NCBI GenBank assembly: GCA_041650835.1
Contig: JBAZKL010000002.1
Location: forward strand, 410,435 to 474,434
Source: Candidatus Omnitrophota bacterium
Lineage (GTDB): Bacteria > Omnitrophota > Gorgyraeia > Gygaellales > Profunditerraquicolaceae
DNA length: 64,000 bases
Direction: 5' to 3'
Under the pieces are notes generated by a model, which worked only from the letters and a program-made list of their open reading frames with translations, made no database searches and was not told the origin of the DNA. Below, in pieces: positions 15,031 through 51,617 of this stretch (position 1 is the stretch's first letter; the number at the start of each line of letters is the position of its first letter). The position numbers and the translations under genes were made by a program.

Positions 15031-16149
15031 TTATTTACTGCCTTCTTTTCTATTTTTTTCTATAATATCCACGATTCGGGCTGCGGAACGGCCATCCCCG
15101 TACGGGCTTACCGCCTGTGACATTTTCTGGTACGACGAGGCGTTATGCAGTAATTCTTCCACGGACCTAATTATTCGTCCGATATCAGTGCCTACCAACC
15201 GTGCGACACCGGCCTGAACGCCTTCAGGGCGCTCCGTTTCACTTCTCATAACAAGTACCGGCTTACCAAGCGCCGGAGCTTCCTCTTGAATACCGCCGGA
15301 ATCCGTAAGCACAAGGTAACAATTTTTTAATAAAGAAACCAACTCGATGTATTCAACCGGTTCAAGCAAATGGACACCCTTAACTCTCTGCAATTTCGCG
15401 TAAACGACATTCCTCACATTCGGATTCAAATGGACAGGATAAACGATTTCAACATCTTCATTACGCGAGGCTATCGCTTTTAAGGCAGAACAGATATTCT
15501 CAAGCGGCCTGCCGAAATTTTCCCGACGATGAGCGGTTACAAGAATCATCTTTTTATTTTTAAGATCAAGGGGGAGAGAAAAGCTTGATTTCCTTTTTAA
15601 TATCATTTGTAACGCGTCAACAACCGTATTTCCGGTAAGATAAACTGCATCGCTTGGTATCCCGCATTTTTTCAGAGCGTTCACCGACAACCTGGTCGGA
15701 GCAAAGTGGTAAGCGGCTAACACTCCGATAACACTGCGATTGATCTCCTCAGGAAAAGGATTATATTTATCATTTGTCCGCAATCCGGCTTCAACATGCC
15801 CAACGGGTATTTTTTGATAAAAACTCGCCAATGCCGCAACCATCGCCGTCGTCGTATCCCCCTGAACAAGCACCAAATCGGGTTTTTCCTCAATCAGCGT
15901 ATTTGTTATCGCAGTAAGGCTGCGCGCAGTTAAAGAAGTGAGTGTTTGATTTTTCCTCATCAAGTTTAGGTCAATATCGGGTTTTATATCGAAAATCTCT
16001 AAGACCTGGTCCAGCATATGCCTATGCTGCGCAGTGACACATACAAGAGGACGGAAATATTTCGGCCGTTTTTGAAGTTCTTTAACGACTGGGGCCATCT
16101 TGATCGCTTCCGGCCTTGTCCCAAATACACACAGGATCTTTCTCTTCAT
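15031..16149 (-). CDS. wecB: UDP-N-acetylglucosamine 2-epimerase (non-hydrolysing)
   Basis: The protein is 372 aa. The N-terminal motif KILCVFGTRPEAIKMAPVV and the overall collinearity are typical of the WecB/MnaA family. Confidence 0.9.
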   Translation of the reverse strand: MKRKILCVFGTRPEAIKMAPVVKELQKRPKYFRPLVCVTAQHRHMLDQVLEIFDIKPDIDLNLMRKNQTLTSLTARSLTAITNTLIEEKPDLVLVQGDTTTAMVAALASFYQKIPVGHVEAGLRTNDKYNPFPEEINRSVIGVLAAYHFAPTRLSVNALKKCGIPSDAVYLTGNTVVDALQMILKRKSSFSLPLDLKNKKMILVTAHRRENFGRPLENICSALKAIASRNEDVEIVYPVHLNPNVRNVVYAKLQRVKGVHLLEPVEYIELVSLLKNCYLVLTDSGGIQEEAPALGKPVLVMRSETERPEGVQAGVARLVGTDIGRIIRSVEELLHNASSYQKMSQAVSPYGDGRSAARIVDIIEKNRKEGSK

Positions 16150-16164
16150 GGATTTTCCTTCCCC

Positions 16165-17205
16165 TTATTTTACCGGACGGACCGCAGAAGAAGCCCCTGG
16201 CCCGAACTGCGCGCTCTTGTTAATGTTTTCGCTGTTTTCCCTAAACCACGCGATCGCTTCTTTCACGCCAAATTCAAAGTCAAGCATCGGGTTAAACCCG
16301 AGCACTTTCTTTGCTTTTTCATTACACGCTAAGAGGCGAGTTTTTGTGTCCCATTTTCTTCTCGCCAGATATTTCACTCCCGCATCGTTGCCCACTAAAC
16401 GATTTACCATCTGGGCAAGATCTATAATCCTGATCTCTCTACCCGCGGCTAGGTTGAACGCCTCACCGATAGCCTCTTTAAAATACCCCATGCGTAACAG
16501 GCCATCAACAATATCGCCGACATACGTAAAATCACGCGTTTCCTCACCCGTTCCCGTGATCGGCAAAGGATTTTTCCCCATCGCCCAATAAATGAAGTTA
16601 GGAATCACGTTACGGTACTGTCCGGGCACTTCGCCTGCGCCGTAAGAATTAAAAAACCGCGCTTTCGATATAGGCATTTCTTTCATCTTATAAAAATAGT
16701 TCAAGTACAGTTCACCGAGCATTTTGGTAATCTGGTAGGGAGTCGTTAAATACATGCTCGCCCCTAATTCCTCTTTATACGGTAACGGCGCATCACTCGG
16801 ATAAATAGAACACCCGGACGAAGCATATACCACCCGCTCGATCTTTCCGTAAAGCGCGATATACTGCAAAAGGCGAAGCGTTCCCAGCCCGTTCGTATTC
16901 AGATCCTCTTCGGGATAATCAACCGAATTTTGGTTAGCGAAGAACGCCGCCAAGTGAAATATAACCTGGGGCTCCTCATTGAAAACCCTTTTGAGATCCA
17001 CCTCATTACGGATATCGCCTTTGACAAAAAGAAGCTTCTGATCATGCGCAGGTAAATTCCAAACATACCCTGAACTTAAATTATCGATCACAACAACCTG
17101 GCAATTAAGTTCCAATAATTTTCTTACCAGCACCGAGCCGACCGCTCCGGCGCCCCCTGTAATTAAAGCCCTCTTTCCTTCATAATACTTTAAATATTCA
17201 GACAT
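16165..17205 (-). CDS. NAD-dependent sugar epimerase/dehydratase (extended SDR)
   Basis: A Rossmann motif ALITGGAGAVGSVLVRKLL is present, with a YxxxK-type catalytic region. The protein is 346 aa. Confidence 0.85.
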   Translation of the reverse strand: MSEYLKYYEGKRALITGGAGAVGSVLVRKLLELNCQVVVIDNLSSGYVWNLPAHDQKLLFVKGDIRNEVDLKRVFNEEPQVIFHLAAFFANQNSVDYPEEDLNTNGLGTLRLLQYIALYGKIERVVYASSGCSIYPSDAPLPYKEELGASMYLTTPYQITKMLGELYLNYFYKMKEMPISKARFFNSYGAGEVPGQYRNVIPNFIYWAMGKNPLPITGTGEETRDFTYVGDIVDGLLRMGYFKEAIGEAFNLAAGREIRIIDLAQMVNRLVGNDAGVKYLARRKWDTKTRLLACNEKAKKVLGFNPMLDFEFGVKEAIAWFRENSENINKSAQFGPGASSAVRPVK

Positions 17206-17225
17206 TGTTTCCTCCTTTTAAATTA

Positions 17226-18443
17226 TTATAGTACTTTTTCGTATATACCAACACAGCTATTCAATGAAAAATGTTTTACCGCATACTCCCTTCCATTTCT
17301 GGCGCATGTTGTCCTGAATGCTTCATCAGAGTGCAATCTTTTTATCCCTTCCGCAAGCTCCTGTGCCTGCCCCGCATCCACGCAGATCCCGCAATTACTT
17401 TCCTGAATAATTTTCGGAGCATCTCCTTTCAGGGGCAAGCTGGCCGCGACCGCTCTGCCTGCTGCCATAATACTCAACAGTTTTGAGGGAACGACCGGAG
17501 TTTTAACCTCTTTATGGAGGTTAACCAGGCAGGCGTCAGAAGCAGCAAGTAGTTTAACGTATTTTTCCTTTTCCAACATCGGCAAAAACCTAACATTCTT
17601 TAAACCTAAAGACTCAACTTTCTGCTGCAGCCTTTTTTTCTCGACCCCTTCACCCACAATAAGAAAAAGGATATTTTCGTTCTTTAAGAAAACGGCTGAT
17701 TCTATCACTGTGTCTAGGTCCTGAGAATACCCGATTACTCCGGCGAATGAAATTATAAAAGAGTTCCCCAGATCAAACTCTTTACGGAATCCGGTATCGA
17801 GAGCTTCTGGTTTTATAGCATCGGTATCGATCCAGTTCGGGACAATGATGACCTTCTCCGGCCGGATCCCTTTCGAAAGGACATGATTACGGTTACCGTC
17901 TGAATGCACGGTAACGACATCAGCATGCCGATAAATGAACCCTTCGATGTTCTCGAACATCCTGATCAAAAATTTATTCTTGAGGATACCCAGGTCGATC
18001 GCGCTTTGCGGGAAAAGGTCTTGCACATTGAAAATAAACGGGATTCTTTTTATCTTGCTGAGCGCGAACGCGGCTAACCCCAGCGGTAATGGCGGAGAAT
18101 ATACCAATATCCGTTCAAAACTGCCTTTCTTAAGGAATAACCCTGCCAAAAGAAAATTGAACGCGGCAATAAACTGGTCGATCCCCCGGGCGACCGGTAT
18201 ATAGCGGGGCAAATTCATAGTAGCGACCCTATTAACGTTCATTCCTGCGATTTCCTCTCGCAAATAAAGACGGTTACGGTATTGAGGAGGGAGGGATTTC
18301 ACATCAACGTTATACCGGGGGAACCCGGTAATGACCGTGATCTCGTGCCCTTCTGAAGCAAGTTTTTTCCCCAACTCAAAGAACAAAAAAGATGCAGATC
18401 CGATTTCTGGCGGGAAATAGGAATTAATGATCAACCATTTCAT
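17226..18443 (-). CDS. glycosyltransferase family 4 (GT-B, group 1)
   Basis: The protein begins MKWLIINSYFPPEIGSAS..., with AAGRAV...E motifs near the C-terminus. The ATG at 18443 is preceded by AAGGAGAG. The upstream 42 codons of the tabulated ORF are an extension that overlaps the neighbouring gene. Confidence 0.8.
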   Translation of the reverse strand: MKWLIINSYFPPEIGSASFLFFELGKKLASEGHEITVITGFPRYNVDVKSLPPQYRNRLYLREEIAGMNVNRVATMNLPRYIPVARGIDQFIAAFNFLLAGLFLKKGSFERILVYSPPLPLGLAAFALSKIKRIPFIFNVQDLFPQSAIDLGILKNKFLIRMFENIEGFIYRHADVVTVHSDGNRNHVLSKGIRPEKVIIVPNWIDTDAIKPEALDTGFRKEFDLGNSFIISFAGVIGYSQDLDTVIESAVFLKNENILFLIVGEGVEKKRLQQKVESLGLKNVRFLPMLEKEKYVKLLAASDACLVNLHKEVKTPVVPSKLLSIMAAGRAVAASLPLKGDAPKIIQESNCGICVDAGQAQELAEGIKRLHSDEAFRTTCARNGREYAVKHFSLNSCVGIYEKVL

Positions 18444-18453
18444 ATTTCTCTCC

Positions 18454-20634
18454 TTATTTAACAGTTTGTACCGCCACGGGGGCGTTTTTCTCGATCGATT
18501 CAAGGACATTAAAAGTAGCCAACGTCGTATATACATAACCCGGAAACAAAGCATTGACATCCTGCACACTGCTCTTCAGGAAATAATCCAACTCATTCTG
18601 ATACCCCATTTCCTGGGCGAATTTCTTAATAGTTTTTTCCTTCCCGTTCTTAACGATAGTTGCTGATTTAAAATCATCAATAACAACAACCGAATCTGAG
18701 CCGAACACCTCTATCCTCTCCCGCGAATAAGACTTAGTTCCAGCGGCAGTATATACGATAGTGCCCAAAGAACCGTCAGAGAGATTTATCTGTATGCTCA
18801 CGTTATCGTCAGCGATATATTTTCCTTTTTGTCCGGATAGAGCGGTCGCGTAAACACTGATCGGATAAGCCCCTGAAATATACTGTAGCAGATCGATGAA
18901 ATGGCATACTTCTCCGACAATCCTTCCGCCTCCGACACTCTTATCCTGTGTCCAGTGCTCCGCAGGGATATACCCCGCGTTAACACGATAGAGCATCACC
19001 AGCGGGCTCGTCCTGTTGATCAGAGCAGGCATAACTTCTTCAATTAACGGACTGAAGCGGCGGTTAAACCCGACCATAAGCTTCACAACGCCGTTACATG
19101 CTTTATGCGCATCTACAATCTGCTCGAGTTCTTCCCGGCTGATACAAAGAGGCTTTTCGATAAATACGTGCTTGCCCGCTTTGAGCGCCTCAATACACAT
19201 TTTCGCGTGGGCATTATGACGGGTAGTTATTATAATACTATTCGTATCTTTATCGTTCAGAACATCATTATAGTCAGAAGTGCAGTATTCAAACCCGTAT
19301 TTCTTACCTAAATGATGCGATGTAATACCGGTAGTTGTAGAAACCCCTCTAAACTTGACCCCGGGGATTTTTGACAAAGCTGGCAGCAATACGTTCTTGG
19401 TAAACATACCTCCACCGATACAACTCACAGTCCTTGCGTTCGAAGCATACTCGCGAATTCCGCTTTTTATCACCACCCGCTGCACGAGATTCTCGCTGGC
19501 CAGCAGATCAGCGCCTTCATATTCCAGAACAACTCCGATACAACGCTCTTTACCCTCCAGGATCATCGCATATGCCGAAAGAGCATCTTTAATATTAAAC
19601 CGATGCGTGATCAATTTCAAGACATCCACGCTCTTTTTGGAAAGTAATGAAACAAAATGCTCGTGGTTTCTTTTTTCGGTCCACCGAACATATTGCAACG
19701 GATAATCATACCCCAACTGTTCATACACAGGATTAATACTACCGGGGCCGGCCGCCTTTGAAACGGTAAAACTTAGTTCTTTTTCCCAGAACGTTTTCCT
19801 GGTTAAGTTGATCTCAGCCACGCCAACCAGCACGATCCGTGCGTTGCTGCGGGCGATTGTTTCCGCCATTTCGATAGGTTTATTGTCCTTGCTGGAAGCT
19901 GTTATAATTACCGCGTCAACCCCGTGCCCTCTCGTAAAATTTTCTATTGCAGCAGCCGTATCGTCGCTTGCCGGATTAAGCCCCAATTGCGCGCCCGATT
20001 CCCTCGCAAGGTTGACCTTACTATCATCTATATCGATGCCGATTATTTCACAGCTATACGCACGCAGCATCTGAACAGTCAACTGCCCCAGAAGGCCTAA
20101 ACCTATAACAGCGACATTTTCTCCAAACGTGATCCCTGCTTGTCTAATGCCTTGCAGAGCTATTCCTCCTAACATAATAAATGAGGCTTCTTCAAAACTT
20201 ACTTGGGCAGGAAGCGACACACACAGGTTTTCCGGCACCCAAATAATTTCAGCGTGAGAAGCAAACCCTGCTCCGACACATGCGACCCTGTCACCAATCT
20301 TGAACTCAGAAACGCCGGAACCAACCTGTATGACCACGCCTGAAGCGCTATAACCGAGCGCCACCGGTTCATCAAGACGGTTCATTGCTTCTTTATACAC
20401 GTTCAACAAACCTTCTTTTCTTGCCTTATCAATAAAACGCTTGACCAAATCGGGCCGTGCTTTGGCTTTATCAAACAGATTCTTCTTAGCGATATCTATC
20501 ATCGATTTTTCAGTGCCAATACTTATTAATGAATTCTTGTTCCTAACCAGAACTCCTCCGGCTTTACACGCCGGCACCGGGATATCTAGCAGGCTGATCT
20601 GACCTGTTTTATAACTCTGTATCACTTGTTTCAT
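18454..20634 (-). CDS. bi-domain oxidoreductase: N-terminal MDR/zinc-type alcohol dehydrogenase-like domain fused to C-terminal Gfo/Idh/MocA NAD(P)-binding oxidoreductase domain
   Basis: The N-terminus resembles MDR dehydrogenases (GGVLVRNKNSLISIGTE...GDRVACVG...). The C-terminus has a Gfo/Idh/MocA Rossmann motif (VSCIGGGMFTKNVLLPAL) and the EKP motif (HVFIEKPLC). The protein is 726 aa. Confidence 0.8.
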   Translation of the reverse strand: MKQVIQSYKTGQISLLDIPVPACKAGGVLVRNKNSLISIGTEKSMIDIAKKNLFDKAKARPDLVKRFIDKARKEGLLNVYKEAMNRLDEPVALGYSASGVVIQVGSGVSEFKIGDRVACVGAGFASHAEIIWVPENLCVSLPAQVSFEEASFIMLGGIALQGIRQAGITFGENVAVIGLGLLGQLTVQMLRAYSCEIIGIDIDDSKVNLARESGAQLGLNPASDDTAAAIENFTRGHGVDAVIITASSKDNKPIEMAETIARSNARIVLVGVAEINLTRKTFWEKELSFTVSKAAGPGSINPVYEQLGYDYPLQYVRWTEKRNHEHFVSLLSKKSVDVLKLITHRFNIKDALSAYAMILEGKERCIGVVLEYEGADLLASENLVQRVVIKSGIREYASNARTVSCIGGGMFTKNVLLPALSKIPGVKFRGVSTTTGITSHHLGKKYGFEYCTSDYNDVLNDKDTNSIIITTRHNAHAKMCIEALKAGKHVFIEKPLCISREELEQIVDAHKACNGVVKLMVGFNRRFSPLIEEVMPALINRTSPLVMLYRVNAGYIPAEHWTQDKSVGGGRIVGEVCHFIDLLQYISGAYPISVYATALSGQKGKYIADDNVSIQINLSDGSLGTIVYTAAGTKSYSRERIEVFGSDSVVVIDDFKSATIVKNGKEKTIKKFAQEMGYQNELDYFLKSSVQDVNALFPGYVYTTLATFNVLESIEKNAPVAVQTVK

Positions 20635-20635
20635 T

Positions 20636-21823
20636 TTAGCCTCTTTTCTTTGATTTTACGTTAGACTCATAAAAACGGGTCATTTTCCTCACATTTTCAA
20701 CCCAGGTATGTTCAGCAATCACCTTTTCTCTGCCCAAACTCCCCATTCTGGCGCATAATCCATCATCCGAGAGCAATTGCATTAGCGCATCGACAAGTCC
20801 CTGTTTATCCCGCTGAGGAAAAAGCAGCCCTTGTCTGCCGTGAACGATCACAGATTCTATCGGAGACAACCGAGGTGCGACAATGGGTTTAGCCATGGCC
20901 ATATACTCGAATATCTTCATTGGTGACCCGTAATTGTTCGAATCCGGCATAACGCCAATATCAAAAGCCGCCAAGTACCCCGGCAGATTGTCGTGAGAAA
21001 CAGGGCCGGTAAAGATCACATAATCATTCAACCCTTCTCTGGCTACTTGTTCTTTAAGTTTCGCTGACATCTGTCCATCTCCGATCAACAATAAACGGAC
21101 ATCTCTGCGGAAAGCTAAAACCTCTTTATAAGCGTCAAGCAGAAAATCTACCCCGTGCCACGGATAAAAGCTGCCTACGAAGCCGATAACTTTATCGCCT
21201 TTTTGAATGCCGTGCCTTAAGCGTATTTCCTGCGGGTCACACTCAAGTTTAAATTTCTCAATATCAACCGCATTCGGTAAAACAATGATCTTTTCAAAAG
21301 CTACCCCCATCGCCGCGATATCATTCTTTAACTTATCAGAAATAACGATAATGATCACGGCGTGCCTGAATACCAACCTCTCTATCGCTGTCTCAAGCCA
21401 GGAGAAGATCCCTGTCCGTTTAGGGTAAACCGTGGTCTGGGTTGTAAAGTTCACCTCTAAGAAAAGCGGCTTTTTACCAAGCAGCGACATGCAGAATCCG
21501 CCAAGATTCAGAAAAGCGTAGCGCTCATACACAATATCAAAACGATGGATACATGCGTAATAAAGCAAATGTATACAGGCAGGCAGATTATACGCTAATT
21601 CCAAAAACTCGAATAAAAACCGTGGCATACGGATAAAAATGCTTTTCTTCTTTTTCTGCTGCGCTTTTTCAGGATCAGCCTTCTGCGAACACCCACCCCC
21701 GTAATTGCCGAGAGATATAATATCAACCTGATACCCAAGCTTTTCAAATCCCTGAACAACTCCCTTAATATGCGTACCGTCGGCCCCACTGCATCGCGTC
21801 CGGTGATGATAAAGGACTCTCAT
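20636..21823 (-). CDS. glycosyltransferase family 4
   Basis: The GT-B fold is recognisable. The C-terminal half has the GT4 motifs IGFVGSF...GPVSHDNLPGYLAAFDIGVMP...EYMAMAKPIVAP. Confidence 0.8.
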   Translation of the reverse strand: MRVLYHHRTRCSGADGTHIKGVVQGFEKLGYQVDIISLGNYGGGCSQKADPEKAQQKKKKSIFIRMPRFLFEFLELAYNLPACIHLLYYACIHRFDIVYERYAFLNLGGFCMSLLGKKPLFLEVNFTTQTTVYPKRTGIFSWLETAIERLVFRHAVIIIVISDKLKNDIAAMGVAFEKIIVLPNAVDIEKFKLECDPQEIRLRHGIQKGDKVIGFVGSFYPWHGVDFLLDAYKEVLAFRRDVRLLLIGDGQMSAKLKEQVAREGLNDYVIFTGPVSHDNLPGYLAAFDIGVMPDSNNYGSPMKIFEYMAMAKPIVAPRLSPIESVIVHGRQGLLFPQRDKQGLVDALMQLLSDDGLCARMGSLGREKVIAEHTWVENVRKMTRFYESNVKSKKRG

Positions 21824-22473
21824 GATCTCTTACTCCACAATTCTGATACCGTGTTAAAAATAAACCCTTTTTGTTTTAGGATACTAATGATCTCAGGCAA
21901 TGCTGTAAGCGTGTACGAATAATCCTCATGGAACAGGATCACGTCTCCGGGAAGAATCACCGCCTGTTTTATGTATTCTGCCAATTTCCGCGGGTCAGTA
22001 AGCATATAGTCCTGACTGTCAAACGACCATAACACTATCCTGATTTTGTGCAACAGGCAATAGACGATCGAGCTCGCCGTCAGCCTGCCCCATGGAGGCC
22101 TGAATAAACGGGAAGATTTTCCCGCGATCTTGATTATTTCATTTTCTGTCTTTTCAACACCCTCAACCAAGTCGGCATTCTTATCATGAAAATATGAGTG
22201 ATTGGCGACCTCATGTCCTCCCCGAAGCATCCCTGTTATTAGATCTGGAAACTCATGCGCCTGTTTCCCAACAACAAAAAAAGTCGCTTTCACCCCCGTT
22301 TCCTGAAGTATTCCGAGCAACTTCAGGGTATTTTCGCGGTGAGGTCCATCATCAAATGTCAACGCGATCATTTTTTCCCGTGTCCTTATTCTGTACAAGA
22401 AATACGGGGTTCGCGCGACGAGCCCCTTAACCAGGCGCAGTACGCGATCTTTTAAATATCTGATGACTGACAT
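21820..22473 (-). CDS. polysaccharide deacetylase (NodB homology domain, CE4)
   Basis: The motif IALTFDDGPHRENTLKLLGILQETGVKATFFVVG matches the NodB TFDDG signature. The protein is 217 aa. Confidence 0.85.
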   Translation of the reverse strand: MSVIRYLKDRVLRLVKGLVARTPYFLYRIRTREKMIALTFDDGPHRENTLKLLGILQETGVKATFFVVGKQAHEFPDLITGMLRGGHEVANHSYFHDKNADLVEGVEKTENEIIKIAGKSSRLFRPPWGRLTASSIVYCLLHKIRIVLWSFDSQDYMLTDPRKLAEYIKQAVILPGDVILFHEDYSYTLTALPEIISILKQKGFIFNTVSELWSKRS

Positions 22474-23429: not shown

Positions 23430-23430
23430 A

Positions 23431-26498: not shown

Positions 26499-26503
26499 TC
26501 GGT

Positions 26504-27619: not shown

Positions 27620-27622
27620 TTT

Positions 27623-28915: not shown

Positions 28916-28920
28916 AGCAA

Positions 28921-30417: not shown

Positions 30418-30430
30418 TAATGCTCACCTT

Positions 30431-38205: not shown

Positions 38206-38218
38206 AATTGACCTCTTT

Positions 38219-40258: not shown

Positions 40259-40280
40259 TGTTTCTTCCTTATAATAATAT

Positions 40281-42092: not shown

Positions 42093-42130
42093 TGCTAATC
42101 CTCCCAAAAATGACTATAATTGATTTTAAA

Positions 42131-42886: not shown

Positions 42887-42889
42887 GAT

Positions 42890-44209: not shown

Positions 44210-44297
44210 TTATCTCTCCTATGTCAATTACTTTTTACGTATTACTAAATTACCTTTTAACCACTTTTTACTGGCATGTCTGGCTACCGTTAGAGCA

Positions 44298-45254
44298 TTA
44301 TTTATTAAACGCAACCTTAAACCAAGCTACCGTACGACGTAAACCTTCTTCAAAGTTTACCCTCGGCTCAAAATTAAGGACTTTCCTGATTTTTGAAATA
44401 TCAGCCAGGGTGCGAAAAACATCTCCCGCGCGAACCGGCAATAATTTCGGCTCGATATTCTTGCCGATTATCTTATTTATAAGCTCGACTAATTGTAATA
44501 CAGTGTTGTCTTTGCCGTTAGCGACATTTAGAACTTCATGTTTGATGCCCGGAGTCGTAGCCGCGAGGACATTTGCTTCCACAACGTTATCAATAAAGGT
44601 GAAATCCCTTGATTGTTTACCCGTGCCGAAAATCGGAGGTTGCTGGTCATTCAGGATACAATGAATGAATTTCGGGATAACGACGGCATATTCATCATCC
44701 AAAGCCTGCCGCGGCCCAAATACGTTAAAATACCGAAGACACACCGTTTCCACCCCAAAATGCTCGGAAAAGATCCTGCAATAATATTCATTAGCTAATT
44801 TGCTCAAAGCGTATGGTGAAATTAAAAGAGGATAATCTCCTTCTGACTCCGGGAATTTGCTTGTGTCTCCGTACACTGAACTTGATGAAGCCATGGCAAA
44901 ACGCTTAATTTTATTCTCGCGGGCGGCTTCCAACATATTCAACGTACCATCAATATTTACCTTATTATATTCGTGAGGAGCAGTCATCGATTTAGGCACA
45001 CTGCGTAAAGCCGCCTGGTGTAAAATAGCGTCAACTCCTTGAGTAGCTTTTAAACAAGTATCTTTATCGCAAATATCTCCTTTGATGAGCGTGTAGCGTG
45101 TAGGGTTCAACGAATAGTTCTTTGTAAAAGACAAATTTTCTTCTTTGCCACTTGAGAAATTGTCCAATACAACAACGTCATGCCTGTCTTTAAGCAAACG
45201 TTCAACAATATGTGAACCGATAAAACCTGCACCTCCAGTTACTAGAACTTTCAT
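44298..45254 (-). CDS. NAD-dependent nucleotide-sugar 4-epimerase (GalE/WbpP-like)
   Basis: The protein begins MKVLVTGGAGFIGSH and carries the YALSK catalytic motif. It is 318 aa. Confidence 0.85.
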   Translation of the reverse strand: MKVLVTGGAGFIGSHIVERLLKDRHDVVVLDNFSSGKEENLSFTKNYSLNPTRYTLIKGDICDKDTCLKATQGVDAILHQAALRSVPKSMTAPHEYNKVNIDGTLNMLEAARENKIKRFAMASSSSVYGDTSKFPESEGDYPLLISPYALSKLANEYYCRIFSEHFGVETVCLRYFNVFGPRQALDDEYAVVIPKFIHCILNDQQPPIFGTGKQSRDFTFIDNVVEANVLAATTPGIKHEVLNVANGKDNTVLQLVELINKIIGKNIEPKLLPVRAGDVFRTLADISKIRKVLNFEPRVNFEEGLRRTVAWFKVAFNK

Positions 45255-45269
45255 CTTAATTCACTCCTT

Positions 45270-45310
45270 GTTTAGTCCACAGTCCATAGTCGATGGTCCA
45301 TAGTCTATAA
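45270..45310. repeat. intergenic heptamer-type repeat (TAGTCCACAGTCCATAGTCGATGGTCCATAGTCTATA)
   Basis: It belongs to the same GTCCATA/GACCATA family as 40308..40350 and 41381..41419. Confidence 0.7.
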
Positions 45311-45317
45311 TTGATAG

Positions 45318-45911
45318 TTATTTCCTTACAATCAAGCGTGCGGGAACACCGACAACTACCCCGCCGTCAGGCACATGTTTATTCCTTGTTACCACCGCTC
45401 CTGCGCCCGTCATAGCTTTTCTTCCTACATTCACCGGAGCTACTAAGATCGAGCCACTCCCTATAAAAGCCCCTTTTTTAATACGAGTCTGGTGCTTATT
45501 TTTCCCGTCATAGTTGGCTACAATAGTGCCGGCGCCGATATTAACCCCTTCTTCCACAAAAGTATCTCCGATATAGGTCAAGTGCTTTACTTTAGACCCG
45601 CTTGAAATAATGGAGCGCACTATTTCAACAAAATTACCGATTGTAACATCATCCTTCAAAGTAACACCCTTACGAATACGCGCGAAAGGGCCGATGGCGC
45701 AACCTTTTCCGATCTTAACATCTGATTCTATGATCGTCGATGGATAAACCACGGTATCAGCGCCGATCTTCACATTTTCACCGATATGAGTGGTAAAGGG
45801 ATCGATGATTCTGACCCCTTTAGCGATAAATTTATAATTACGCGTGATGCGCTCTTTGTCTAACTGGATCATTTCTTCGATTATTTTACCGTTAGTGTTT
45901 TTCTTCTTCAT
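45318..45911 (-). CDS. left-handed beta-helix acetyltransferase resembling the C-terminal acetyltransferase domain of GlmU
   Basis: The segment ANYDGKNKHQTRIKKGAFIGSGSILVAPVNVG closely matches the GlmU LbH-domain consensus (NYDGxNKxxTxIGDxxFxGSxxxLVAPVxxG). The protein is 197 aa and stand-alone. Confidence 0.65.
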   Translation of the reverse strand: MKKKNTNGKIIEEMIQLDKERITRNYKFIAKGVRIIDPFTTHIGENVKIGADTVVYPSTIIESDVKIGKGCAIGPFARIRKGVTLKDDVTIGNFVEIVRSIISSGSKVKHLTYIGDTFVEEGVNIGAGTIVANYDGKNKHQTRIKKGAFIGSGSILVAPVNVGRKAMTGAGAVVTRNKHVPDGGVVVGVPARLIVRK

Positions 45912-45973
45912 TAAAACCTCGATTTAAGTTGGTATTCAAATAATGTTAATCTTTTCAAACTTATCAAATACAC

Positions 45974-46020
45974 CCCGCGCTTATCGGTTTTGCGCGGGTG
46001 TGCGGCATTCTGCCGCAGAC
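45974..46020 (-). terminator. tandem GC hairpins downstream of glmM (putative terminator)
   Basis: Two hairpins are present: CCCGCGC-ttatcggttttg-GCGCGGG and TGCGGCA-ttc-TGCCGCA. They lie 30 to 70 nt past the glmM stop. Confidence 0.4.
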
Positions 46021-46047
46021 AATATCAAAGTGACAGTCACTTTTCTT

Positions 46048-47415
46048 TTACACACCGAGTTCTTGTTTGATGACGGAGGCTAAAGAGTGAGCGATTGATT
46101 CTATTTCTGACTTGTCTTTACCTTCTACCATGACGCGTGCCAGCGCTTCAGTGCCTGAATATCGTAAAAGTATCCTGCCATTATTCTTGATCTGCGACAA
46201 ACTGTCTTTCAACGCCTTACAAACCGCGGGGACCTCTTCAAAGGGCTTTTTTTCCTTAACTTTGATGTTTACCAATATCTGCGGATACTTCTTCATGCAT
46301 GAAGAAAGACTGCTCAAGCTCTTTTTTGACTGCTGCATAACTTTTAAGAGCTCTAAAGAGACAATCAACGCGTCTCCTGATGTTGACTGCTGCAGGAAAA
46401 TAATATGGCCTGCTTGTTCTCCCCCGAAAATCAGGTTGTTCTTTAACATGGCCTCAGTAACATTTCTATCTCCTACGTCCGTGCGAATAAGCTTGCCACC
46501 AGCGTTTCCCAAGGCTTCTTCAAGGCCATAATTACTCATAACAGTAGCAACAACACTTTTCATAGGCAGCTTATTTTCATTGATGAGTTTTGTACCGACA
46601 ATAGCCATGATGAAATCACCGTCAAGCACATTGCCTTTTTCATCAGATAAAATAACCCTGTCCCCGTCACCATCATATGAAAAACCGATATCGGCATTAT
46701 GCTTAATTACCGCCTTGGCCATGCTTTCAGGATGGAGCGCCCCGCAGCCTAAATTTATATTCTTTCCGTTCGGCTGGTCGTTTAAAACAAACACTTTCGC
46801 TCCTAATTCTTTGAATAGTTTTGCCGCGATGCTATAGAGAGCGCCATGAGCGCAATCAAGGACAATTTTGAGTTCGCTTAAATCCAACAATGACGCTTTT
46901 GACTTTAAGAAATCAATATAAAGCCTCTCTGCGTTATGCTCATGAGCCACTAAGCCCGATTCATCAACCGATGATTTATCGGAATCGATGAAGCTGCCGC
47001 CTACTAATTCTTCCATATTTTTTTCTTGCGTATCAGAAAGCTTATACCCGGAGTTTGAAAAAAACTTAATGCCATTTTCTTCCGCGCAATTGTGAGAGGC
47101 GGAGATCATGATCCCCATATCGGCTTTTAGTCTTCTGGTCAAGAATGATAACCCGGGCGTAGATATGATCCCAACTAAAGATACATCAACGCCGCAGGCA
47201 GAAATACCTCCTACCAACAGCTTCTCGATTACTTCACAACTCATCCTGGTATCCTTGCCGATAATGATCTTATAATGCTTATCCCTTGTGCTTCTCTGAT
47301 TATGCAACAAGATAGCGGCTGCTTTGCCGATCTTAAGTATCATTTCATCGGTTAAAGGGTATTCGCCGGGTGTTCCTCGTATCCCATCAGTTCCGAAAAG
47401 TTTATTTTTGCTCAT
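46048..47415 (-). CDS. glmM: phosphoglucosamine mutase (phosphohexomutase superfamily)
   Basis: The N-terminus has LFGTDGIRG. An active-site Ser lies in SASHNCAEENGIKFF. The 455-aa length is typical of GlmM. Confidence 0.75.
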   Translation of the reverse strand: MSKNKLFGTDGIRGTPGEYPLTDEMILKIGKAAAILLHNQRSTRDKHYKIIIGKDTRMSCEVIEKLLVGGISACGVDVSLVGIISTPGLSFLTRRLKADMGIMISASHNCAEENGIKFFSNSGYKLSDTQEKNMEELVGGSFIDSDKSSVDESGLVAHEHNAERLYIDFLKSKASLLDLSELKIVLDCAHGALYSIAAKLFKELGAKVFVLNDQPNGKNINLGCGALHPESMAKAVIKHNADIGFSYDGDGDRVILSDEKGNVLDGDFIMAIVGTKLINENKLPMKSVVATVMSNYGLEEALGNAGGKLIRTDVGDRNVTEAMLKNNLIFGGEQAGHIIFLQQSTSGDALIVSLELLKVMQQSKKSLSSLSSCMKKYPQILVNIKVKEKKPFEEVPAVCKALKDSLSQIKNNGRILLRYSGTEALARVMVEGKDKSEIESIAHSLASVIKQELGV

Positions 47416-47575: not shown

Positions 47576-48364
47576 CTACAGGTATCGATAAATATATTCG
47601 GGGATATGGTATTGCACATTGGTCAAGACAAACCCTAAGATATTGACGCGCGCTTGACGTAATATGTCTTCACCATGCTTAATGATTCCTCGCTGAGTAC
47701 GATTAGCTTGAATCACCATTACAACTCCATCAGTTTGAGCCCCAATTAATCCTGCATCAGTTACCGGAATGATCGGAGGTGAATCAAAGATTACGTAATC
47801 AAACTTTTCTTTAAGTGTAGTTATTAAATTCTTGAATTTCATAGAGTTAAGAAGTTCTGCCGGATTATGAGGCACTTTCCCTGCAGGTAAAAACATTAAA
47901 TTATCAATCCCGATTTTAACGACAGCCTCATCAACATTAATTCCATTGCTGATCACTTCAGATAAGCCGGCTTCAGACTTAATACCTATATATTTGCTTG
48001 ATTTACCACGACGCAGATCTGCATCAACTAAAAGGATGCGTTTTTTGTTCAAATCGTGAGCCATTGAGACCGCAAGATTAATTGAAGTAACGCTTTTCCC
48101 TTCGCTATGGATTGAACTCGTAATAGTAATTGCCTTAATAGGTTTTTCTGAATTAATCGCCTGTATATTAGTCCTTAAAGTACGATACTGCTCCGCGACA
48201 GTTGAATGAAGATCGTAAAATGTGACAATACGCGGATCATATTTCGCGTCAACGGTCTTTTGAGCGACAAATTGATACGTGATCTCTGATTTTTCATCCA
48301 GTTTATCTATGCGGGATAGCCGTTCTTCAGCGGCTTTTTTTAATGCGTCGGTGATCTTACCCAT
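47576..48364 (-). CDS. BY-kinase (tyrosine autokinase) catalytic domain protein, CpsD/EpsG-like
   Basis: It has a P-loop ATPase motif (SSIHSEGKSVTSINLA) and a Walker B motif (ILLVDADLR). The C-terminal Tyr cluster is HIPEYIYRYL. The protein is 262 aa and lacks a transmembrane activator domain. Confidence 0.8.
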   Translation of the reverse strand: MGKITDALKKAAEERLSRIDKLDEKSEITYQFVAQKTVDAKYDPRIVTFYDLHSTVAEQYRTLRTNIQAINSEKPIKAITITSSIHSEGKSVTSINLAVSMAHDLNKKRILLVDADLRRGKSSKYIGIKSEAGLSEVISNGINVDEAVVKIGIDNLMFLPAGKVPHNPAELLNSMKFKNLITTLKEKFDYVIFDSPPIIPVTDAGLIGAQTDGVVMVIQANRTQRGIIKHGEDILRQARVNILGFVLTNVQYHIPEYIYRYL

Positions 48365-48397: not shown

Positions 48398-49408
48398 TTA
48401 AAGCGTTTTTGCCTGCTTTGTTGCATCAGGATTTTGCAAACACGCTAAATAATTATAGCAACTGTTACAACAAAATTGTTCTTCTCCTTTAGTTCCCCGC
48501 TCCCATTTGAGGCCGCAATCATTATAATGCAGGCAGCGAGTACAGCAATGGATCTTCCGAACGGCAAGAAGGGATATACCGCTCAGACCATTTTGCTCTT
48601 CCATTAATTCCCTATCTTTTATGACTTCTAAAACCATTCCTTCATTAATCGTCTTTGTATCAGCAATATATCCTGAAAGTAACGCGCTATCGCAAATGAG
48701 ATTTATGACCCGGGGAACGCCTCGAGAATGACGAAAAATCAGATCAATCGCTTGCGGCTGGAATATTTCAGCGTGTCCGTTTGAGCTCACCAGCGAAAGC
48801 CTATGCAGAATATAAGCAGTTGTTTCATCTTGAGTTAAAGGAGAGATATGGTAGTGCAAAGCAATACGCTGCCTAAATTGTTCGAGTGTCTTATGCCCTA
48901 GCTTCTTTTTCAACTCCGGTTGGCCGATAAGTATTATTTGTAAAAGTTTATCGGTTTCGGTCTCAAGATTTGAAAGCATCCTTACTTCTTCCAAAACATT
49001 ATGGCTTAAGTTCTGCGCTTCATCTATCATAAGAACAACGTTAATATTTTGAGAAAGTTGTTTGATCAAATAATCATTTAATTGAGACAACATCTTTTGT
49101 TTGCTTCCTGAGATACGAGCGATCTCAAATTCCTCCAGAATCTGAGAAATCAGCTCCTTCGCGCTCATATGGGTATTGGTGATCAACGCCACTTTAGTCC
49201 CGGCATCAAGCTTCTTTAATACTGCCCTGGTTACCGTGGTTTTGCCCGCGCCTATCTCGCCTGTAATAACCACAAACCCTTTTCTTTCCTCAATAGCATA
49301 GATCAAGCTATTCAATGCTTCTGTATGCTTAGAACTGGGGAAGAAAAATTTCGGATTCGGTGTTACATTAAACGGCTTATCTTTAAAACAAAAGAATTTT
49401 TCGTACAT
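48398..49408 (-). CDS. ExeA/MshM-like AAA ATPase with Cys-rich C-terminal tail
   Basis: Walker A is VVITGEIGAGKTT and Walker B is MIDEAQNL. The Cys-rich C-terminal tail reads CCTRCLHYNDCGLKW...CCNSCYNYLAC. The protein is 336 aa. Confidence 0.8.
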   Translation of the reverse strand: MYEKFFCFKDKPFNVTPNPKFFFPSSKHTEALNSLIYAIEERKGFVVITGEIGAGKTTVTRAVLKKLDAGTKVALITNTHMSAKELISQILEEFEIARISGSKQKMLSQLNDYLIKQLSQNINVVLMIDEAQNLSHNVLEEVRMLSNLETETDKLLQIILIGQPELKKKLGHKTLEQFRQRIALHYHISPLTQDETTAYILHRLSLVSSNGHAEIFQPQAIDLIFRHSRGVPRVINLICDSALLSGYIADTKTINEGMVLEVIKDRELMEEQNGLSGISLLAVRKIHCCTRCLHYNDCGLKWERGTKGEEQFCCNSCYNYLACLQNPDATKQAKTL

Positions 49409-49410: not shown

Positions 49411-50706
49411 TTATTGTTTAAGCAGCGAATAAAGCATTGAGATCACCATCACAAATATACCACCTGCTAACCCGGTAATTATAAATAAGCGTTTTCTATG
49501 CTTCTCATTATCAATTTCTTCACGTGTTGTTATACGAGAAATAGCCCCTAAAATAGGAAATTTTAGATGACGTTTAGCATCCTCAATATCAAGGAATGAT
49601 TGGTCCATAAACTCTCGCGTAAATACTAATCCTACTCCAGCAGCTCCTCCAAGAAAAAAACCAATCACTACAAAGAGCACCTTAGGCATCTTCGGCTGTA
49701 AAGGAAGCCGAGGAGGATCAATGATGGTATAGCGGGTGCCTTGTTTGGAAGCTTCAAGCCGCTGAGTGATCTTAGCCGTTTCTAACCTCTGAAGCAGCAT
49801 ATTGTAGATCTGCTCATTGACCCTGATATCTTGAGCCTTTGCTGAATCTAATTTATCCATTAAGAATAACTTATATATTGTTCCATTGACATCGCTTGTA
49901 CTATTATCAACAGCCATAGGAGCAGCAGCGCTATCTGTATTAAGCTTTTCTAGTTCGACCTGAAGCGTTTCACGCATTGCTTTTGTGATTGGCTTCTCAG
50001 AATCAGCGATCTTATATTCTCCGGACTCAAGCGCTTTCTTAGCCTGGTCAACCTTATGTTTTAATTCTTTGACTAACGGATGCTCTTCCGTGGAATTAAT
50101 AGTCAATACCCTTAACTGTTCCTCCAAATCAGCGATCTCTGATTCTTTAACCTTTCTTTTATAAACCTGGAGCTGCTCTTTAAGAAAGTTGATCGCTACA
50201 TCAGTTTCTTTAGTTTGGGAACGCATGCTTTCTTCAACAAACAGATCAGTCAATGTCTTAACCACTTTAAAAGCAGTTTGGGGATCTTTATCTCCATACG
50301 ATATCCTGATGATACTTTGCGCATTCAAATCTACCCTGATCTTCCTTGCCAGCGTTTTAATAAAATTTTCAAACTGAGATTGGCTTTCTACATTTTTTGC
50401 TAATTCCAGTTTTTTAACTAAATCTGTCAGATTATTCCAGCCAAGCAATCTTTCCCGTATCGTCTGCAGCCTTTGAGAAAAACTGGCGGAAACCGCTAAA
50501 TCCTGTATCAAAGGATTAATAGTCCTTTGTTCTTCGACTAAGATCGCGGTTGATGACTCATAGGTTGCCGGTAGAACAAAATATGCAACCACCCCTAAAA
50601 CCAATCCTATATACAGAGGCGTTAAAATAAACCATTTTCTGCGGAAAAAAAGCTTCAGGTATGCTATAGGATTGTTATATTTTTGTAACGGACTTTCATT
50701 TTCCAT
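49411..50706 (-). CDS. polysaccharide co-polymerase / chain-length determinant (Wzz/GumC/EpsF-like)
   Basis: An N-terminal TM helix (WFILTPLYIGLVLGVVAYFVL) is followed by a long coiled-coil periplasmic region and a C-terminal TM helix (LFIITGLAGGIFVMVISML). It lies 3 nt upstream of the ATPase gene. Confidence 0.75.
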   Translation of the reverse strand: MENESPLQKYNNPIAYLKLFFRRKWFILTPLYIGLVLGVVAYFVLPATYESSTAILVEEQRTINPLIQDLAVSASFSQRLQTIRERLLGWNNLTDLVKKLELAKNVESQSQFENFIKTLARKIRVDLNAQSIIRISYGDKDPQTAFKVVKTLTDLFVEESMRSQTKETDVAINFLKEQLQVYKRKVKESEIADLEEQLRVLTINSTEEHPLVKELKHKVDQAKKALESGEYKIADSEKPITKAMRETLQVELEKLNTDSAAAPMAVDNSTSDVNGTIYKLFLMDKLDSAKAQDIRVNEQIYNMLLQRLETAKITQRLEASKQGTRYTIIDPPRLPLQPKMPKVLFVVIGFFLGGAAGVGLVFTREFMDQSFLDIEDAKRHLKFPILGAISRITTREEIDNEKHRKRLFIITGLAGGIFVMVISMLYSLLKQ

Positions 50707-50723
50707 ATTAGTTTCCTCTAATT

Positions 50724-51617
50724 TTATTGTGTCGGCCTTGTAGGAGTTCTTATAGCTGTAACTGCTCCCGTCCCGGTAGTTGCCGCGGCTGCGCCGCTTG
50801 CTGCCGCTGTTAAAGGTTCGGTAACCGGATTAATGATCCGGGTAACTTTTGCCATTATAGTTGAAGGAACATATAGCACATCCCCGGGATGCATATCGAT
50901 ATTCTGTTTAAGATTCCCTCCATAAAGTAGGGAATATAAATTAACGTATTTAGTTTTGGGGTTGCCTTTCTTATCTGGAGTGATCAAACGGCATTTCCGC
51001 GTAGCGGATGCTATCGTAGGAAGCCCTGCTTCAACAATCGCTTCCCGTACAGGAATAGTTTCAGAACGCATATAATATTTACCCGGCCGGCCCACTTCTC
51101 CTAATACGTAGTAAACTTTACTACGGTATTCTAAGATAGTGACGTTAACTTCAGGATTGACCGCATAAGTTGATATCAATTGTTTTATTTTAGCCTCTAG
51201 TTCCTTTTTTGTCAGGCCTGTTACCACAATATCTCCAACATAATTATACTGAACCTTTCCCTCTAAATTAACAGGGAAAACTCCGCTGAATTCTGAATGA
51301 CGCTGAATGGTTATCTCAATAATATCATCAGGGCCCAGGGTATAGACCACTTCTTCATTGACCTTAACGGCTTTAGCCTCTGGAGCGGGCTGAACAAGTT
51401 GCTCTTGAGCCTGGGCTTCGGTCTTTACTTGATTCTGCGCCTGATCTACCACTGGAGTCACTTGAGCAGGTTCCTGAACCGTAGACTGAGTAACTACTAC
51501 GGTTTCTTGCTGTGTTTTAGTTATAGTTTCTTGAGCGTTCACCCAGGAAACACAAAAAAAACATATAATAAAAGCTAAACTTAAGCTAAATTTCTTTACC
51601 ATTTCCATCCTCCTCAA
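50724..51617 (-). CDS. polysaccharide export outer-membrane protein (Wza-like; Poly_export + SLBB domains)
   Basis: It has a signal peptide and a Poly_export-like region (YTLGPDDIIEITI...). An SLBB-like segment is present (PGDVLYVPS). The start is ambiguous among M1, M4 and M6. The gene overlaps the 51586..51786 gene by a few codons. Confidence 0.8.
   Translation of the reverse strand: MRRMEMVKKFSLSLAFIICFFCVSWVNAQETITKTQQETVVVTQSTVQEPAQVTPVVDQAQNQVKTEAQAQEQLVQPAPEAKAVKVNEEVVYTLGPDDIIEITIQRHSEFSGVFPVNLEGKVQYNYVGDIVVTGLTKKELEAKIKQLISTYAVNPEVNVTILEYRSKVYYVLGEVGRPGKYYMRSETIPVREAIVEAGLPTIASATRKCRLITPDKKGNPKTKYVNLYSLLYGGNLKQNIDMHPGDVLYVPSTIMAKVTRIINPVTEPLTAAASGAAAATTGTGAVTAIRTPTRPTQ

Follow-up and report, generated by a model that had tools for sequence, protein, structure and literature searches.

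The closest described relatives of the locus reported here are the XrtA/PEP-CTERM exopolysaccharide (EPS) systems, such as the pDV system of Nitratidesulfovibrio vulgaris Hildenborough (NC_005863.1, 41-69 kb; hereafter D. vulgaris pDV) and the EpsH system of Methylobacillus (PMC1569441). For EpsH systems, delivery of PEP-CTERM proteins to the cell surface or the EPS matrix has been proposed (Haft et al. 2006, PMC1569441). Like the present locus, XrtA systems combine an export module consisting of an outer-membrane polysaccharide export protein (OPX), a chain-length determinant (PCP), a BY-kinase and a GspA-like ATPase with a polysaccharide deacetylase, an O-antigen-ligase-family protein, a flippase and GT4 enzymes. 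Both also have a priming transferase of the Bac_transf type, several small PEP-CTERM proteins in a cluster, and a distal exosortase gene with a separate EpsI gene immediately after it; a TPR protein, a histidine kinase and a sigma-54 response regulator lie nearby. A second parallel is found in group-1-like Wzx/Wzy capsule and EPS pathways with a split PCP-2b and BY-kinase, which share with the locus Wzx, Wzy, PCP, a separate cytoplasmic BY-kinase, OPX and conserved flanks that enclose a variable core of glycosyltransferases. To that plan, the present locus adds the GspA-like ATPase and the link to exosortase and PEP-CTERM cargo.

Omnitrophota are a phylum of mostly uncultured nanobacteria. The window examined here is a 64-kb stretch of an 868,238-bp Candidatus Omnitrophota contig, of which about 81 kb were read in all. 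Profile searches of the window ORFs place a Wzx/Wzy-type EPS cluster at 15031-51617, co-directional on the minus strand. With a probability of about 0.88, the window covers the proximal part (~52 kb) of an exosortase/PEP-CTERM-associated EPS supercluster of ~70 kb in this uncultured bacterium. The identities and positions of its genes (Table 1), their synteny in relatives and the conservation of their motifs are direct observations. In the order of transcription, the supercluster begins with MerR, OPX, PCP, the ExeA-like ATPase and the BY-kinase, and continues with precursor genes for UDP-GlcNAc, uronic acid and ManNAc. The ligase/ACP pair, amidotransferases, acetyl- and methyl-transferases, six glycosyltransferases, Wzx and Wzy follow, with WecB last. 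Next come a beta-helix protein, its start codon 2 nt downstream of wecB, and a giant repeat protein, both ending in a CFI-box; two divergently transcribed regulators on the opposite strand; and GspC, PilM/N, a secretin, a second GspC and a GspE/PilB ATPase. The distal part consists of the exosortase, EpsI, the priming phosphoglycosyl transferase (PGT) and three PEP-CTERM proteins, then a membrane protein of unknown function, a TPR protein, a GAF histidine kinase and a sigma-54 response regulator.

Table 1. Features of the supercluster. Positions are those of the window or, where marked L092, of the overlapping segment of the same contig; scores are in bits.
Feature	Position	Strand	Profile evidence
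MerR-family HTH regulator, locus head	51586-51801	-	NCBIfam MerR/BldC-type matches
OPX, Wza-like outer-membrane polysaccharide export protein	50724-51617	-	Pfam Poly_export/SLBB_2; TIGR03027 83.3 (cut-off 180); PRK15078 83.5
PCP chain-length determinant, Wzz/GNVR	49411-50706	-	TIGR03007 254.2 (cut-off 278.85)
ExeA/GspA-like AAA ATPase, XrtA-system-associated type	48398-49408	-	TIGR03015 311.4 (cut-off 324.5)
BY-kinase, cytoplasmic	47576-48364	-	TIGR01007 168.4 (above cut-off 108.05); TIGR03018 161.5 (below 230.65)
Nucleotide-sugar supply block, five genes, GlmM to NTP-transferase	42131-47415	-	TIGR03026 386.7 (above cut-off 189.8)
GlmM	46048-47415	-	TIGR01455 532.7 (above cut-off 447.55)
GlmU-C-like acetyltransferase	45318-45911	-	
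TviC-like epimerase	44298-45254	-	PRK15181 (TviC) 244.6, below cut-off
TviB-like UDP-GlcNAc 6-dehydrogenase	42890-44209	-	PRK15182 (TviB) 514.5 (below cut-off 592)
NTP-transferase	42131-42886	-	
ACP, stand-alone	41820-42107	-	PP-binding and ACP models, every score below cut-off
AMP-dependent ligase	40334-41806	-	TIGR03098 386.5 (cut-off 592)
AsnB-type amidotransferase 2	38219-40330	-	TIGR01536 526.3 (above cut-off 267.1); TIGR03108 466.8 (below 816.9)
WbuX-like N-acetyl-sugar amidotransferase	37207-38268	-	TIGR03573 160.1 (below cut-off 203.2)
Unknown lipoprotein	36403-37203	-	soluble, non-membrane
GNAT	35315-36397	-	PF13527 (Acetyltransf_9)
Hexapeptide O-acetyltransferase	34729-35301	-	EpsC/CysE-like acetyltransferase matches, below cut-off
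Unknown soluble protein	33576-34718	-	soluble, non-membrane
Glycosyltransferase/tailoring block	16165-31633	-	TIGR03088 250 (below cut-off 409); TIGR04063 168.6 (below 442)
Methyltransferase/APH-kinase fusion	31630-33579	-	Pfam APH and Methyltransf_11
GT4	30431-31633	-	
Wzx flippase	28921-30417	-	PF01943 and PF13440
Wzy-type polymerase / O-antigen-ligase family	27623-28915	-	PF04932 62.1; TIGR03097 48.3 (below cut-off 188)
GT4, stp2-like	26504-27619	-	
GT4	25293-26498	-	
AsnB-type amidotransferase 1	23431-25293	-	TIGR01536 519.9 (above cut-off 267.1); TIGR03108 592.8 (below 816.9)
GT2	22452-23429	-	
NodB deacetylase	21820-22473	-	
GT4	20636-21823	-	
ADH/Gfo-Idh-MocA oxidoreductase fusion	18454-20634	-	
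WcaI-like GT4	17226-18569	-	
SDR epimerase/dehydratase	16165-17205	-	
WecB, UDP-GlcNAc 2-epimerase, final biosynthetic gene	15031-16149	-	TIGR00236 497.5 (above cut-off 210.15)
Pel9A-like right-handed beta-helix + fn3 protein, secreted, poly-Gly linker and CFI-box-CTERM end	13053-15029	-	NF041770 88.7 (above cut-off 40)
Tandem-95 repeat protein, 3261 aa, CFI-box-CTERM	2792-12577	-	NF012211 409.5 (above cut-off 90); NF041770 86.9 (above 40)
GspC-like PDZ protein	604-1479	-	GspC_delta 69.3, below cut-off
Exosortase	L092 10001-10813 (6,072-6,884 nt past window edge)	as EPS cluster	PF09721 Exosortase_EpsH
EpsI	L092 10820-11440		PF11984; TIGR02914 87.9 (cut-off 42.8)
Priming phosphoglycosyl transferase	L092 11974-12846		PF02397 Bac_transf; TIGR03025 294.9 (cut-off 295.55)
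PEP-CTERM proteins, three	L092 12861-13589, 13741-14805, 14898-15488		PF07589

The EPS genes listed in an earlier sequence-only reading of this DNA are all present on the minus strand where it placed them, and only its "FemAB/GNAT-like" protein needs renaming, as a plain GNAT that shows no similarity by tblastn (E = 0.58) to a true FemAB protein of the XrtA-associated kind. The clustering of these genes is not due to chance, since they form a single co-directional array whose head keeps its gene order in other Omnitrophota contigs, where the MerR gene likewise precedes that of OPX. The set for a Wzx/Wzy-dependent pathway is complete in flippase, polymerase, PCP and OPX, with the priming transferase lying off-window. 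The same reading held that neither an exosortase nor a PEP-CTERM protein occurs in the 64 kb, and within those limits it was right. None of the window ORFs of at least 100 aa matched an exosortase model, D. vulgaris pDV XrtA and EpsI queries gave a best tblastn E of 3.9, and a six-frame search revealed no PEP, PEF or PGF tail with a hydrophobic stretch. The only polytopic proteins are Wzx and Wzy. Three unannotated ORFs considered as divergent exosortases (33576-34718, 36403-37203 and 55294-55950) were rejected as soluble or single-pass.

The apparent lack of an exosortase is instead an artefact of the window edge, because the gene lies 6.1 kb past position 1 on the same contig and strand. Window position 1 corresponds to position 3929 of the segment L092, and the two overlap exactly. 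The edge cuts the secretin module between its first GspC gene and the PilM/N gene, and this module, which resembles those of type II secretion and type IV pili, runs on until it ends at the exosortase. The exosortase, EpsI, the PGT and the three PEP-CTERM proteins are found 6-12 kb beyond the left edge, with EpsI starting 7 nt downstream of the end of the exosortase gene. The exosortase is of the EpsH-family type, with eight transmembrane segments and the Cys/Arg/His residues, and exceeds the cut-offs of TIGR02602 (156.8 versus 105.55 bits) and TIGR04178 (69.2 versus 23). In an alignment with D. vulgaris XrtA, its Cys181, Arg226 and His247 are invariant. The three adjacent PEP-CTERM proteins pass TIGR02595 (20.9, 17.2 and 21.1 versus a cut-off of 16), and their tails show VPEP or IPEP, a hydrophobic helix and a basic cluster. 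The TPR protein, GAF histidine kinase and sigma-54 response regulator that accompany this module score below the PrsT, PrsK and PrsR cut-offs (29/312, 103/300 and 421/503, respectively). Of the two explanations offered by the sequence-only reading, a sortase encoded elsewhere is thus the one borne out, and the idea of a system lacking its canonical sortase falls with the discovery of an exosortase and multiple PEP-CTERM proteins elsewhere in the genome. The main outcome is the removal of a false lead. A truly missing sortase would have implied either "XrtA-associated" EPS genes that act independently of an exosortase or a new sorting signal. Neither is the case, since the sortase sits 6 kb past the edge.

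Does the exosortase belong with the EPS genes? They could be independent neighbours, the EPS genes forming a Wzx/Wzy capsule system complete in itself, with the exosortase serving unrelated surface proteins. In this genome, the exosortase and the last EPS gene are on the same strand, 21 kb apart, and the ~20 kb between them hold other genes (the CFI-box proteins, the two oppositely oriented regulators and the secretin module), which makes co-transcription unlikely. The EPS genes all fall short of XrtA-associated cut-offs, and EpsH alone lacks homologues in PEP-CTERM-negative genomes (Haft et al., PMC1569441). Against independence, the sole priming transferase found is in the exosortase module, and the EPS block has none. 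In addition, the head module (MerR-OPX-PCP-ATPase-BY-kinase) recurs on the strand of the exosortase tail in two further Omnitrophota contigs, at distances of 17 and 31 kb. In the larger, of 183 kb, the distance from ATPase to exosortase is 31 kb. The smaller, of 48 kb, is from end to end one uninterrupted locus running from MerR, OPX, PCP, ATPase and BY-kinase through Wzx, Wzy and a beta-helix protein to exosortase, EpsI and PGT, after which come eight PEP-CTERM genes, a TPR protein and a histidine kinase; here the exosortase is contiguous with the EPS genes and 16.7 kb from the ATPase. Among other Omnitrophota loci, L010 and L012 share the order CFI-box giant protein, GspC, secretin, GspE, exosortase and EpsI, and L080 has a CFI-box beta-helix protein, exosortase, EpsI, PGT and PEP-CTERM protein. 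D. vulgaris pDV has a like order, with xrt and epsI ~17 kb downstream of the ATPase. Independent neighbours are therefore decidedly improbable, and the conserved synteny suggests that the EPS genes are functionally coupled to the exosortase. The system is an exosortase-linked EPS locus of the ordinary kind, here in an Omnitrophota genome; a literature search on exosortases and PEP-CTERM proteins in this phylum found no relevant paper.

The gene set was correctly recognized as resembling "exosortase A-associated" loci: XrtA-associated NCBIfam models are the best or near-best matches of the EPS genes, yet every score is below its curated cut-off (TIGR03015 311/324.5, 03007 254/279, 03018 161/231, 03027 83/180, 03108 593/817, 03098 386/592, 03097 48/188, 03088 250/409 and 03006 44/276). 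The exosortase likewise reaches no named Xrt subtype among the NCBIfam models, scoring 178.1 for XrtA (TIGR03109, cut-off 208), 177.6 for XrtW (425) and 170.2 for XrtD (400). Judged by these profile scores, the locus does not qualify as an XrtA system under the curated definition. The ATPase is 41% identical to the XrtA/PEP-CTERM system-associated ATPase of D. vulgaris pDV. In contrast to XrtA systems, the Omnitrophota locus remains below every subtype-specific cut-off, has the ATPase and kinase in swapped order, and has its priming transferase, which bears an N-terminal PEP-like segment, next to the exosortase and not at the locus head. Furthermore, the TIGR03016 outer-membrane protein, FemAB and the large PrsT were not found in the locus (no homologue in the window by tblastn), and in this genome the secretin/GspE module and the two CFI-box proteins are inserted before the exosortase. 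Since Omnitrophota exosortase and EPS genes lie just below the cut-offs for XrtA systems, annotation pipelines give them only generic names.

Turning to the secreted proteins after wecB, their "CFIATA" tail had been taken for a different C-terminal signal, possibly of another sorting system coupled to the same EPS machinery in place of the exosortase. This tail is already curated, as the CFI-box-CTERM domain NF041770, which comprises the C-terminal ~69 aa, and with scores of 87-89 bits (cut-off 40) the two proteins are indistinguishable from the family. In both, a poly-Gly linker leads to GCFIATAxYGS. The two lie directly after the last EPS gene, and a 646-kb relative has an orthologue of the beta-helix protein at the same locus position, also with a CFI-box. 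Homologues of the beta-helix protein, which carry PF22842/PF13229, end in variable C-terminal modules, T9SS sorting domains among them, suggestive of a role in anchoring. These observations would favor sorting by the CFI-box; however, an intact exosortase system adjoins, and the beta-helix protein of the compact 48-kb relative has no CFI-box. The domain is also widespread: reference genomes of many bacterial phyla and of Hadarchaeota archaea contain over 557 sites. Of 80 CFI-box loci sampled outside this genome, just one had OPX and BY-kinase genes within 10 kb. When the 917 neighboring ORFs were clustered, the commonest families were generic (OmpR-type response regulators at 14/80 loci, ABC ATPases at 10/80), GspC-like proteins and secretins appeared at 5/80 each, no partner gene was common to more than 14 loci, and no candidate for a dedicated processing enzyme emerged. 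The AlphaFold2 model is a confident four-helix domain of soluble type (pLDDT 90.3), unlike the motif, transmembrane helix and basic cluster of a sorting signal. The CFI-box shows no specific association with the genes of EPS export, and its having replaced exosortase sorting is the least probable of the readings considered, very remote indeed. It is a common helical domain, predicted to fold confidently; a Foldseek search of the PDB gave no match at E <= 0.001, and neither its name nor its motif turned up a paper in full-text searches.

For the exosortase-linked EPS locus, the gene families suggest a likely sequence of events. The off-window Bac_transf enzyme would prime undecaprenyl phosphate, on which the glycosyltransferases may assemble a repeat unit rich in N-acetyl-hexosaminuronic acid that is amidated, acylated and acetylated. 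Wzx would flip the unit and Wzy polymerize it under the control of PCP and the BY-kinase, with export through OPX. The exosortase, by means of Cys181, Arg226 and His247, would cleave the PEP-CTERM tails of the neighboring small secreted proteins, which may then be delivered to the cell surface or the EPS matrix as for EpsH systems (PMC1569441).

What is new here is small: an exosortase outside the named Xrt subtypes, and a PEP-like segment embedded in the PGT. This segment lies N-terminal to the catalytic domain and consists of A-P-E-P/F, a hydrophobic helix and a basic cluster. It is conceivable, though unlikely, that the Omnitrophota exosortase is a distinct unnamed subtype that recognizes or cleaves the conserved segment of the PGT, thereby coupling sorting to EPS priming. 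If so, protein sorting would be physically tied to the step that starts EPS synthesis, which would bear directly on the long-open question of the exosortase attachment target. Omnitrophota widely encode a conserved 270-aa exosortase together with an EPS module of their own, with at least 120 homologues above 60% identity.

The EPS genes of the window form a co-directional polysaccharide cluster, and nearly all long ORFs of the window are on the minus strand; the coordinates are collected in the table. All ORFs of at least 100 aa, plus small ORFs in the gaps, were searched against the NCBIfam and Pfam profiles. Behind a leading MerR regulator come export genes for a Wza-like OPX protein, a Wzz/GNVR chain-length determinant, an ExeA/GspA-like AAA ATPase and a cytoplasmic BY-kinase. 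The precursor genes encode GlmM, a GlmU-C-like acetyltransferase, a TviC-like epimerase, a TviB-like UDP-GlcNAc 6-dehydrogenase and an NTP-transferase. The remainder consists of a stand-alone ACP with an AMP-ligase, two AsnB-type amidotransferases and one WbuX-like, a GNAT protein, an O-acetyltransferase, a methyltransferase/kinase fusion, six glycosyltransferases, Wzx, a Wzy_C-family protein, a NodB deacetylase, oxidoreductases and WecB. Every gene listed in the sequence-only reading was thus recovered, with one correction: its "FemAB/GNAT-like" protein is a plain GNAT and has no similarity to the genuine FemAB protein associated with exosortase A (XrtA). For many cluster genes an XrtA-associated TIGRFAM is the best or near-best match, in all cases under the curated cut-off (TIGR03015, 311.4 versus 324.5; TIGR03007, 254.2 versus 278.85; TIGR03108, 592.8 versus 816.9).

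Features of the window and of its fetched left flank (L092); positions are those of the window unless marked L092
Feature	Position	Strand	Remark
GH57 enzyme	55962-57524		
ParA-like ATPase/CBM48 fusion	54157-55233		
Proteasome beta-subunit-like protein	52922-53635		237 aa
MerR regulator	51586-51801	-	first gene in transcription direction
Polysaccharide (EPS) cluster	15031-51617		co-directional
Secreted protein, Pel9A-like beta-helix and fn3	13053-15029		658 aa; directly downstream of wecB; tail at 13053-13290
Tandem-repeat protein	2792-12577		3261 aa; second gene downstream of wecB; tail at 2792-3000
XRE/cupin HTH regulator and stand-alone CheY-like response regulator	1671-2682	+	
T2SS/type-IV-pilus-like module	604-1479 and L092 3604-9995		
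Exosortase	L092 10001-10813	that of the EPS genes	270 aa; 6,072-6,884 nt outside window
Bac_transf priming phosphoglycosyl transferase	L092 11974-12846	that of the EPS genes	adjoins exosortase

That reading had also found the locus to be devoid of an exosortase and of PEP-CTERM proteins across the 64 kb, and within these limits it is borne out. No ORF in the window matched an exosortase or archaeosortase model of NCBIfam or Pfam, and a six-frame scan of the window found no PEP-type tail with a hydrophobic helix. When XrtA, EpsI, the TIGR03016 outer-membrane protein, FemAB, the TIGR03013 transferase and PrsT from the canonical XrtA/PEP-CTERM locus of D. vulgaris pDV were used as tblastn queries against the window, the best E value was 0.2. 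The EPS cluster likewise holds no priming phosphoglycosyl transferase.

The missing sortase is an artefact of the window edge. An alignment of C-terminal "CFIATA" (CFI-box) tails was scanned against reference genomes, and tblastn of D. vulgaris XrtA on the neighbourhoods of the matches placed exosortase homologues within 10 kb of a CFI-box match in three Omnitrophota loci. The GspC encoded at L010, one of the three, is 84% identical to that of the window. Sequence flanking the window on its own contig was fetched twice, through the GspC gene and then through the exosortase; it overlaps the window exactly, window position 1 being L092 position 3929. Outside the window, and on the strand of the EPS genes, lie genes for a PilM/N-like protein, two small proteins without a family match, a secretin, a second GspC-like PDZ protein and a GspE/PilB ATPase. 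These are followed by the exosortase, EpsI, the Bac_transf transferase, three PEP-CTERM proteins, an unknown membrane protein, a TPR protein, a GAF histidine kinase and a sigma-54 response regulator. An exosortase and multiple PEP-CTERM proteins elsewhere in the genome are what the sequence-only reading had itself named as its refutation.

The exosortase scores above both the general model (TIGR02602, 156.8 versus 105.55) and the family signature (TIGR04178, 69.2 versus 23), and its Cys181, Arg226 and His247 are invariant in an alignment with D. vulgaris XrtA. EpsI exceeds TIGR02914 (87.9 versus 42.8). All three PEP-CTERM proteins exceed the TIGR02595 cut-off of 16 (20.9, 17.2 and 21.1) and end in canonical tails (...VPEPASLSLLGIGLLGLLGGMKKK, ...VVPEPVSMLLFGVGGLTLAAAKKLRKKKVL and ...AIPEPTSMMLLGMGILGLFGLKRKS). 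A new point is that the system is XrtA-like and, by cut-off, outside every named Xrt subtype (XrtA, 178 versus 208; XrtW, 178 versus 425; XrtD, 170 versus 400); since no subtype cut-off is reached, the NCBI name is only "exosortase/archaeosortase family protein".

By synteny, the EPS genes and the exosortase module make up a single conserved unit in Omnitrophota. At least 120 homologues share more than 60% identity with the exosortase; those with an organism name are nearly all from Omnitrophota, and several sit on contigs that also carry the ATPase. A 48-kb contig (JGI 3300038439), covered by two overlapping fetches, presents the whole locus: MerR, OPX, PCP, ATPase, BY-kinase, a glycosyltransferase, Wzx, a pyruvyl transferase, glycosyltransferases, Wzy, a Pel9A-like beta-helix protein, a deacetylase, a GT2, exosortase, EpsI, the priming transferase, eight PEP-CTERM proteins, a TPR protein and a GAF kinase, with 16.7 kb between ATPase and exosortase. 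On a 183-kb contig (JGI 3300035660), read in two stretches 11 kb apart, 31 kb separate the two genes, which share a strand and have EPS genes on either side. Two further loci, L010 and L012, repeat the order of the window genome (CFI-box giant, GspC, PilMN, secretin, GspC, GspE, exosortase, EpsI), and L080 runs from a CFI-box beta-helix protein through exosortase, EpsI, priming transferase, PEP-CTERM and TPR proteins to a sigma-54 regulator. In the canonical D. vulgaris locus, too, about 17 kb separate the ATPase from xrt and epsI, which lie downstream of it. According to Haft et al. (PMC1569441), epsH almost always sits among EPS genes, and PrsK/R/T-type regulators occur nearby.

The priming transferase offers a second new point, in that a PEP-like segment stands ahead of its catalytic domain. 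Its N-terminal extension consists of a signal-like helix, about 40 residues and then the PEP-CTERM-like segment (QAPEPSSFLFVLGGIGGLIVSFVRRSFRK). The segment is conserved in four further Omnitrophota loci (L093, L039, L080 and L095), the motif reading APEPS, APEPN, AAEP or APEFS across genomes, with a hydrophobic helix and then a basic cluster behind it. It could be an exosortase recognition site.

Judged by the protein families, polymer synthesis would be Wzx/Wzy-dependent, and its priming would be done by the Bac_transf enzyme next to the exosortase. The precursor genes, for GlmM, the split GlmU functions, TviB-like dehydrogenase, TviC-like epimerase and WecB, suggest a polymer rich in N-acetyl-hexosaminuronic acids and ManNAc-derived sugars. 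Amidotransferases of the AsnB and WbuX types, together with the ligase/ACP/GNAT set and the acetyl- and methyltransferases, would decorate it. Such a polyuronate could plausibly be the substrate of the Pel9A-like beta-helix protein, acting as a lyase or epimerase, and the adjacent small PEP-CTERM proteins would be processed by the exosortase.

The alternative raised beforehand was that this lineage couples the EPS machinery to a different sorting system, signalled by the CFI-box tails. The beta-helix protein is among the conserved members of the cluster, and both it and the tandem-repeat giant end in a poly-Gly linker, GCFIATAxYGS and some 60 residues, matching NCBIfam CFI-box-CTERM (NF041770) at 88.7 and 86.9 bits, respectively, against a cut-off of 40. 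In the compact 48-kb relative the beta-helix protein is without a CFI-box. In reference genomes the exact pattern GGGCFIATA was confirmed at more than 557 sites, the taxa including Omnitrophota, Nitrospirota, Gamma- and Deltaproteobacteria, Spirochaetota, NC10, Chloroflexota, Bacteroidota and Hadarchaeota archaea. Among 80 sampled CFI-box loci, OPX and BY-kinase genes lay within 10 kb in only one and an exosortase was present in four; when ORFs within 10 kb were clustered, no gene family recurred in more than 14. AlphaFold2 models the domain as a compact four-helix fold (mean pLDDT 90.3), a predicted structure that differs from a sorting signal of motif, transmembrane helix and basic tail. Given the widespread sites, the rare OPX/BY-kinase linkage in the sampled loci, the lack of a widely shared neighbour family and the predicted helical fold, a CFI-box sorting system tied to the EPS machinery is very unlikely. 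Foldseek found no PDB relative of the model, and no mention of the domain was found in the literature. An invariant Cys stands at its N-terminus, after the poly-Gly linker.

Between the CFI-box giant and the exosortase lies the T2SS/type-IV-pilus-like module, comprising two GspC-like PDZ proteins, a PilM/N fusion, a secretin and a GspE/PilB ATPase in an order that recurs in L010 and L012. Secretion of the giant CFI-box protein may be its role. ATPases of the GspA-like family, to which that of the EPS module belongs, help secretin assembly in other bacteria. Of the annotated genes in this stretch, only the XRE/cupin and CheY-like genes, which stand between the giant gene and the secretin module, are on the opposite strand.

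In a 646-kb relative (L003/L007), the MerR-to-AsnB head and the WecB/CFI-box beta-helix tail of the cluster are conserved, and the ATPase is 84% identical to that of the window. The central glycosyltransferase region differs, containing a radical-SAM/SPASM gene and a 993-aa multi-GT fusion; such conserved flanks around a variable core are the typical pattern of a surface-polysaccharide locus. Upstream of the cluster, and conserved there in several Omnitrophota contigs, is a protein with a proteasome beta-subunit-like N-terminus (PF00227) that matches the archaeal proteasome beta model at E = 1e-10, under the cut-off; its neighbours are the ParA-like ATPase/CBM48 fusion and the GH57 enzyme.
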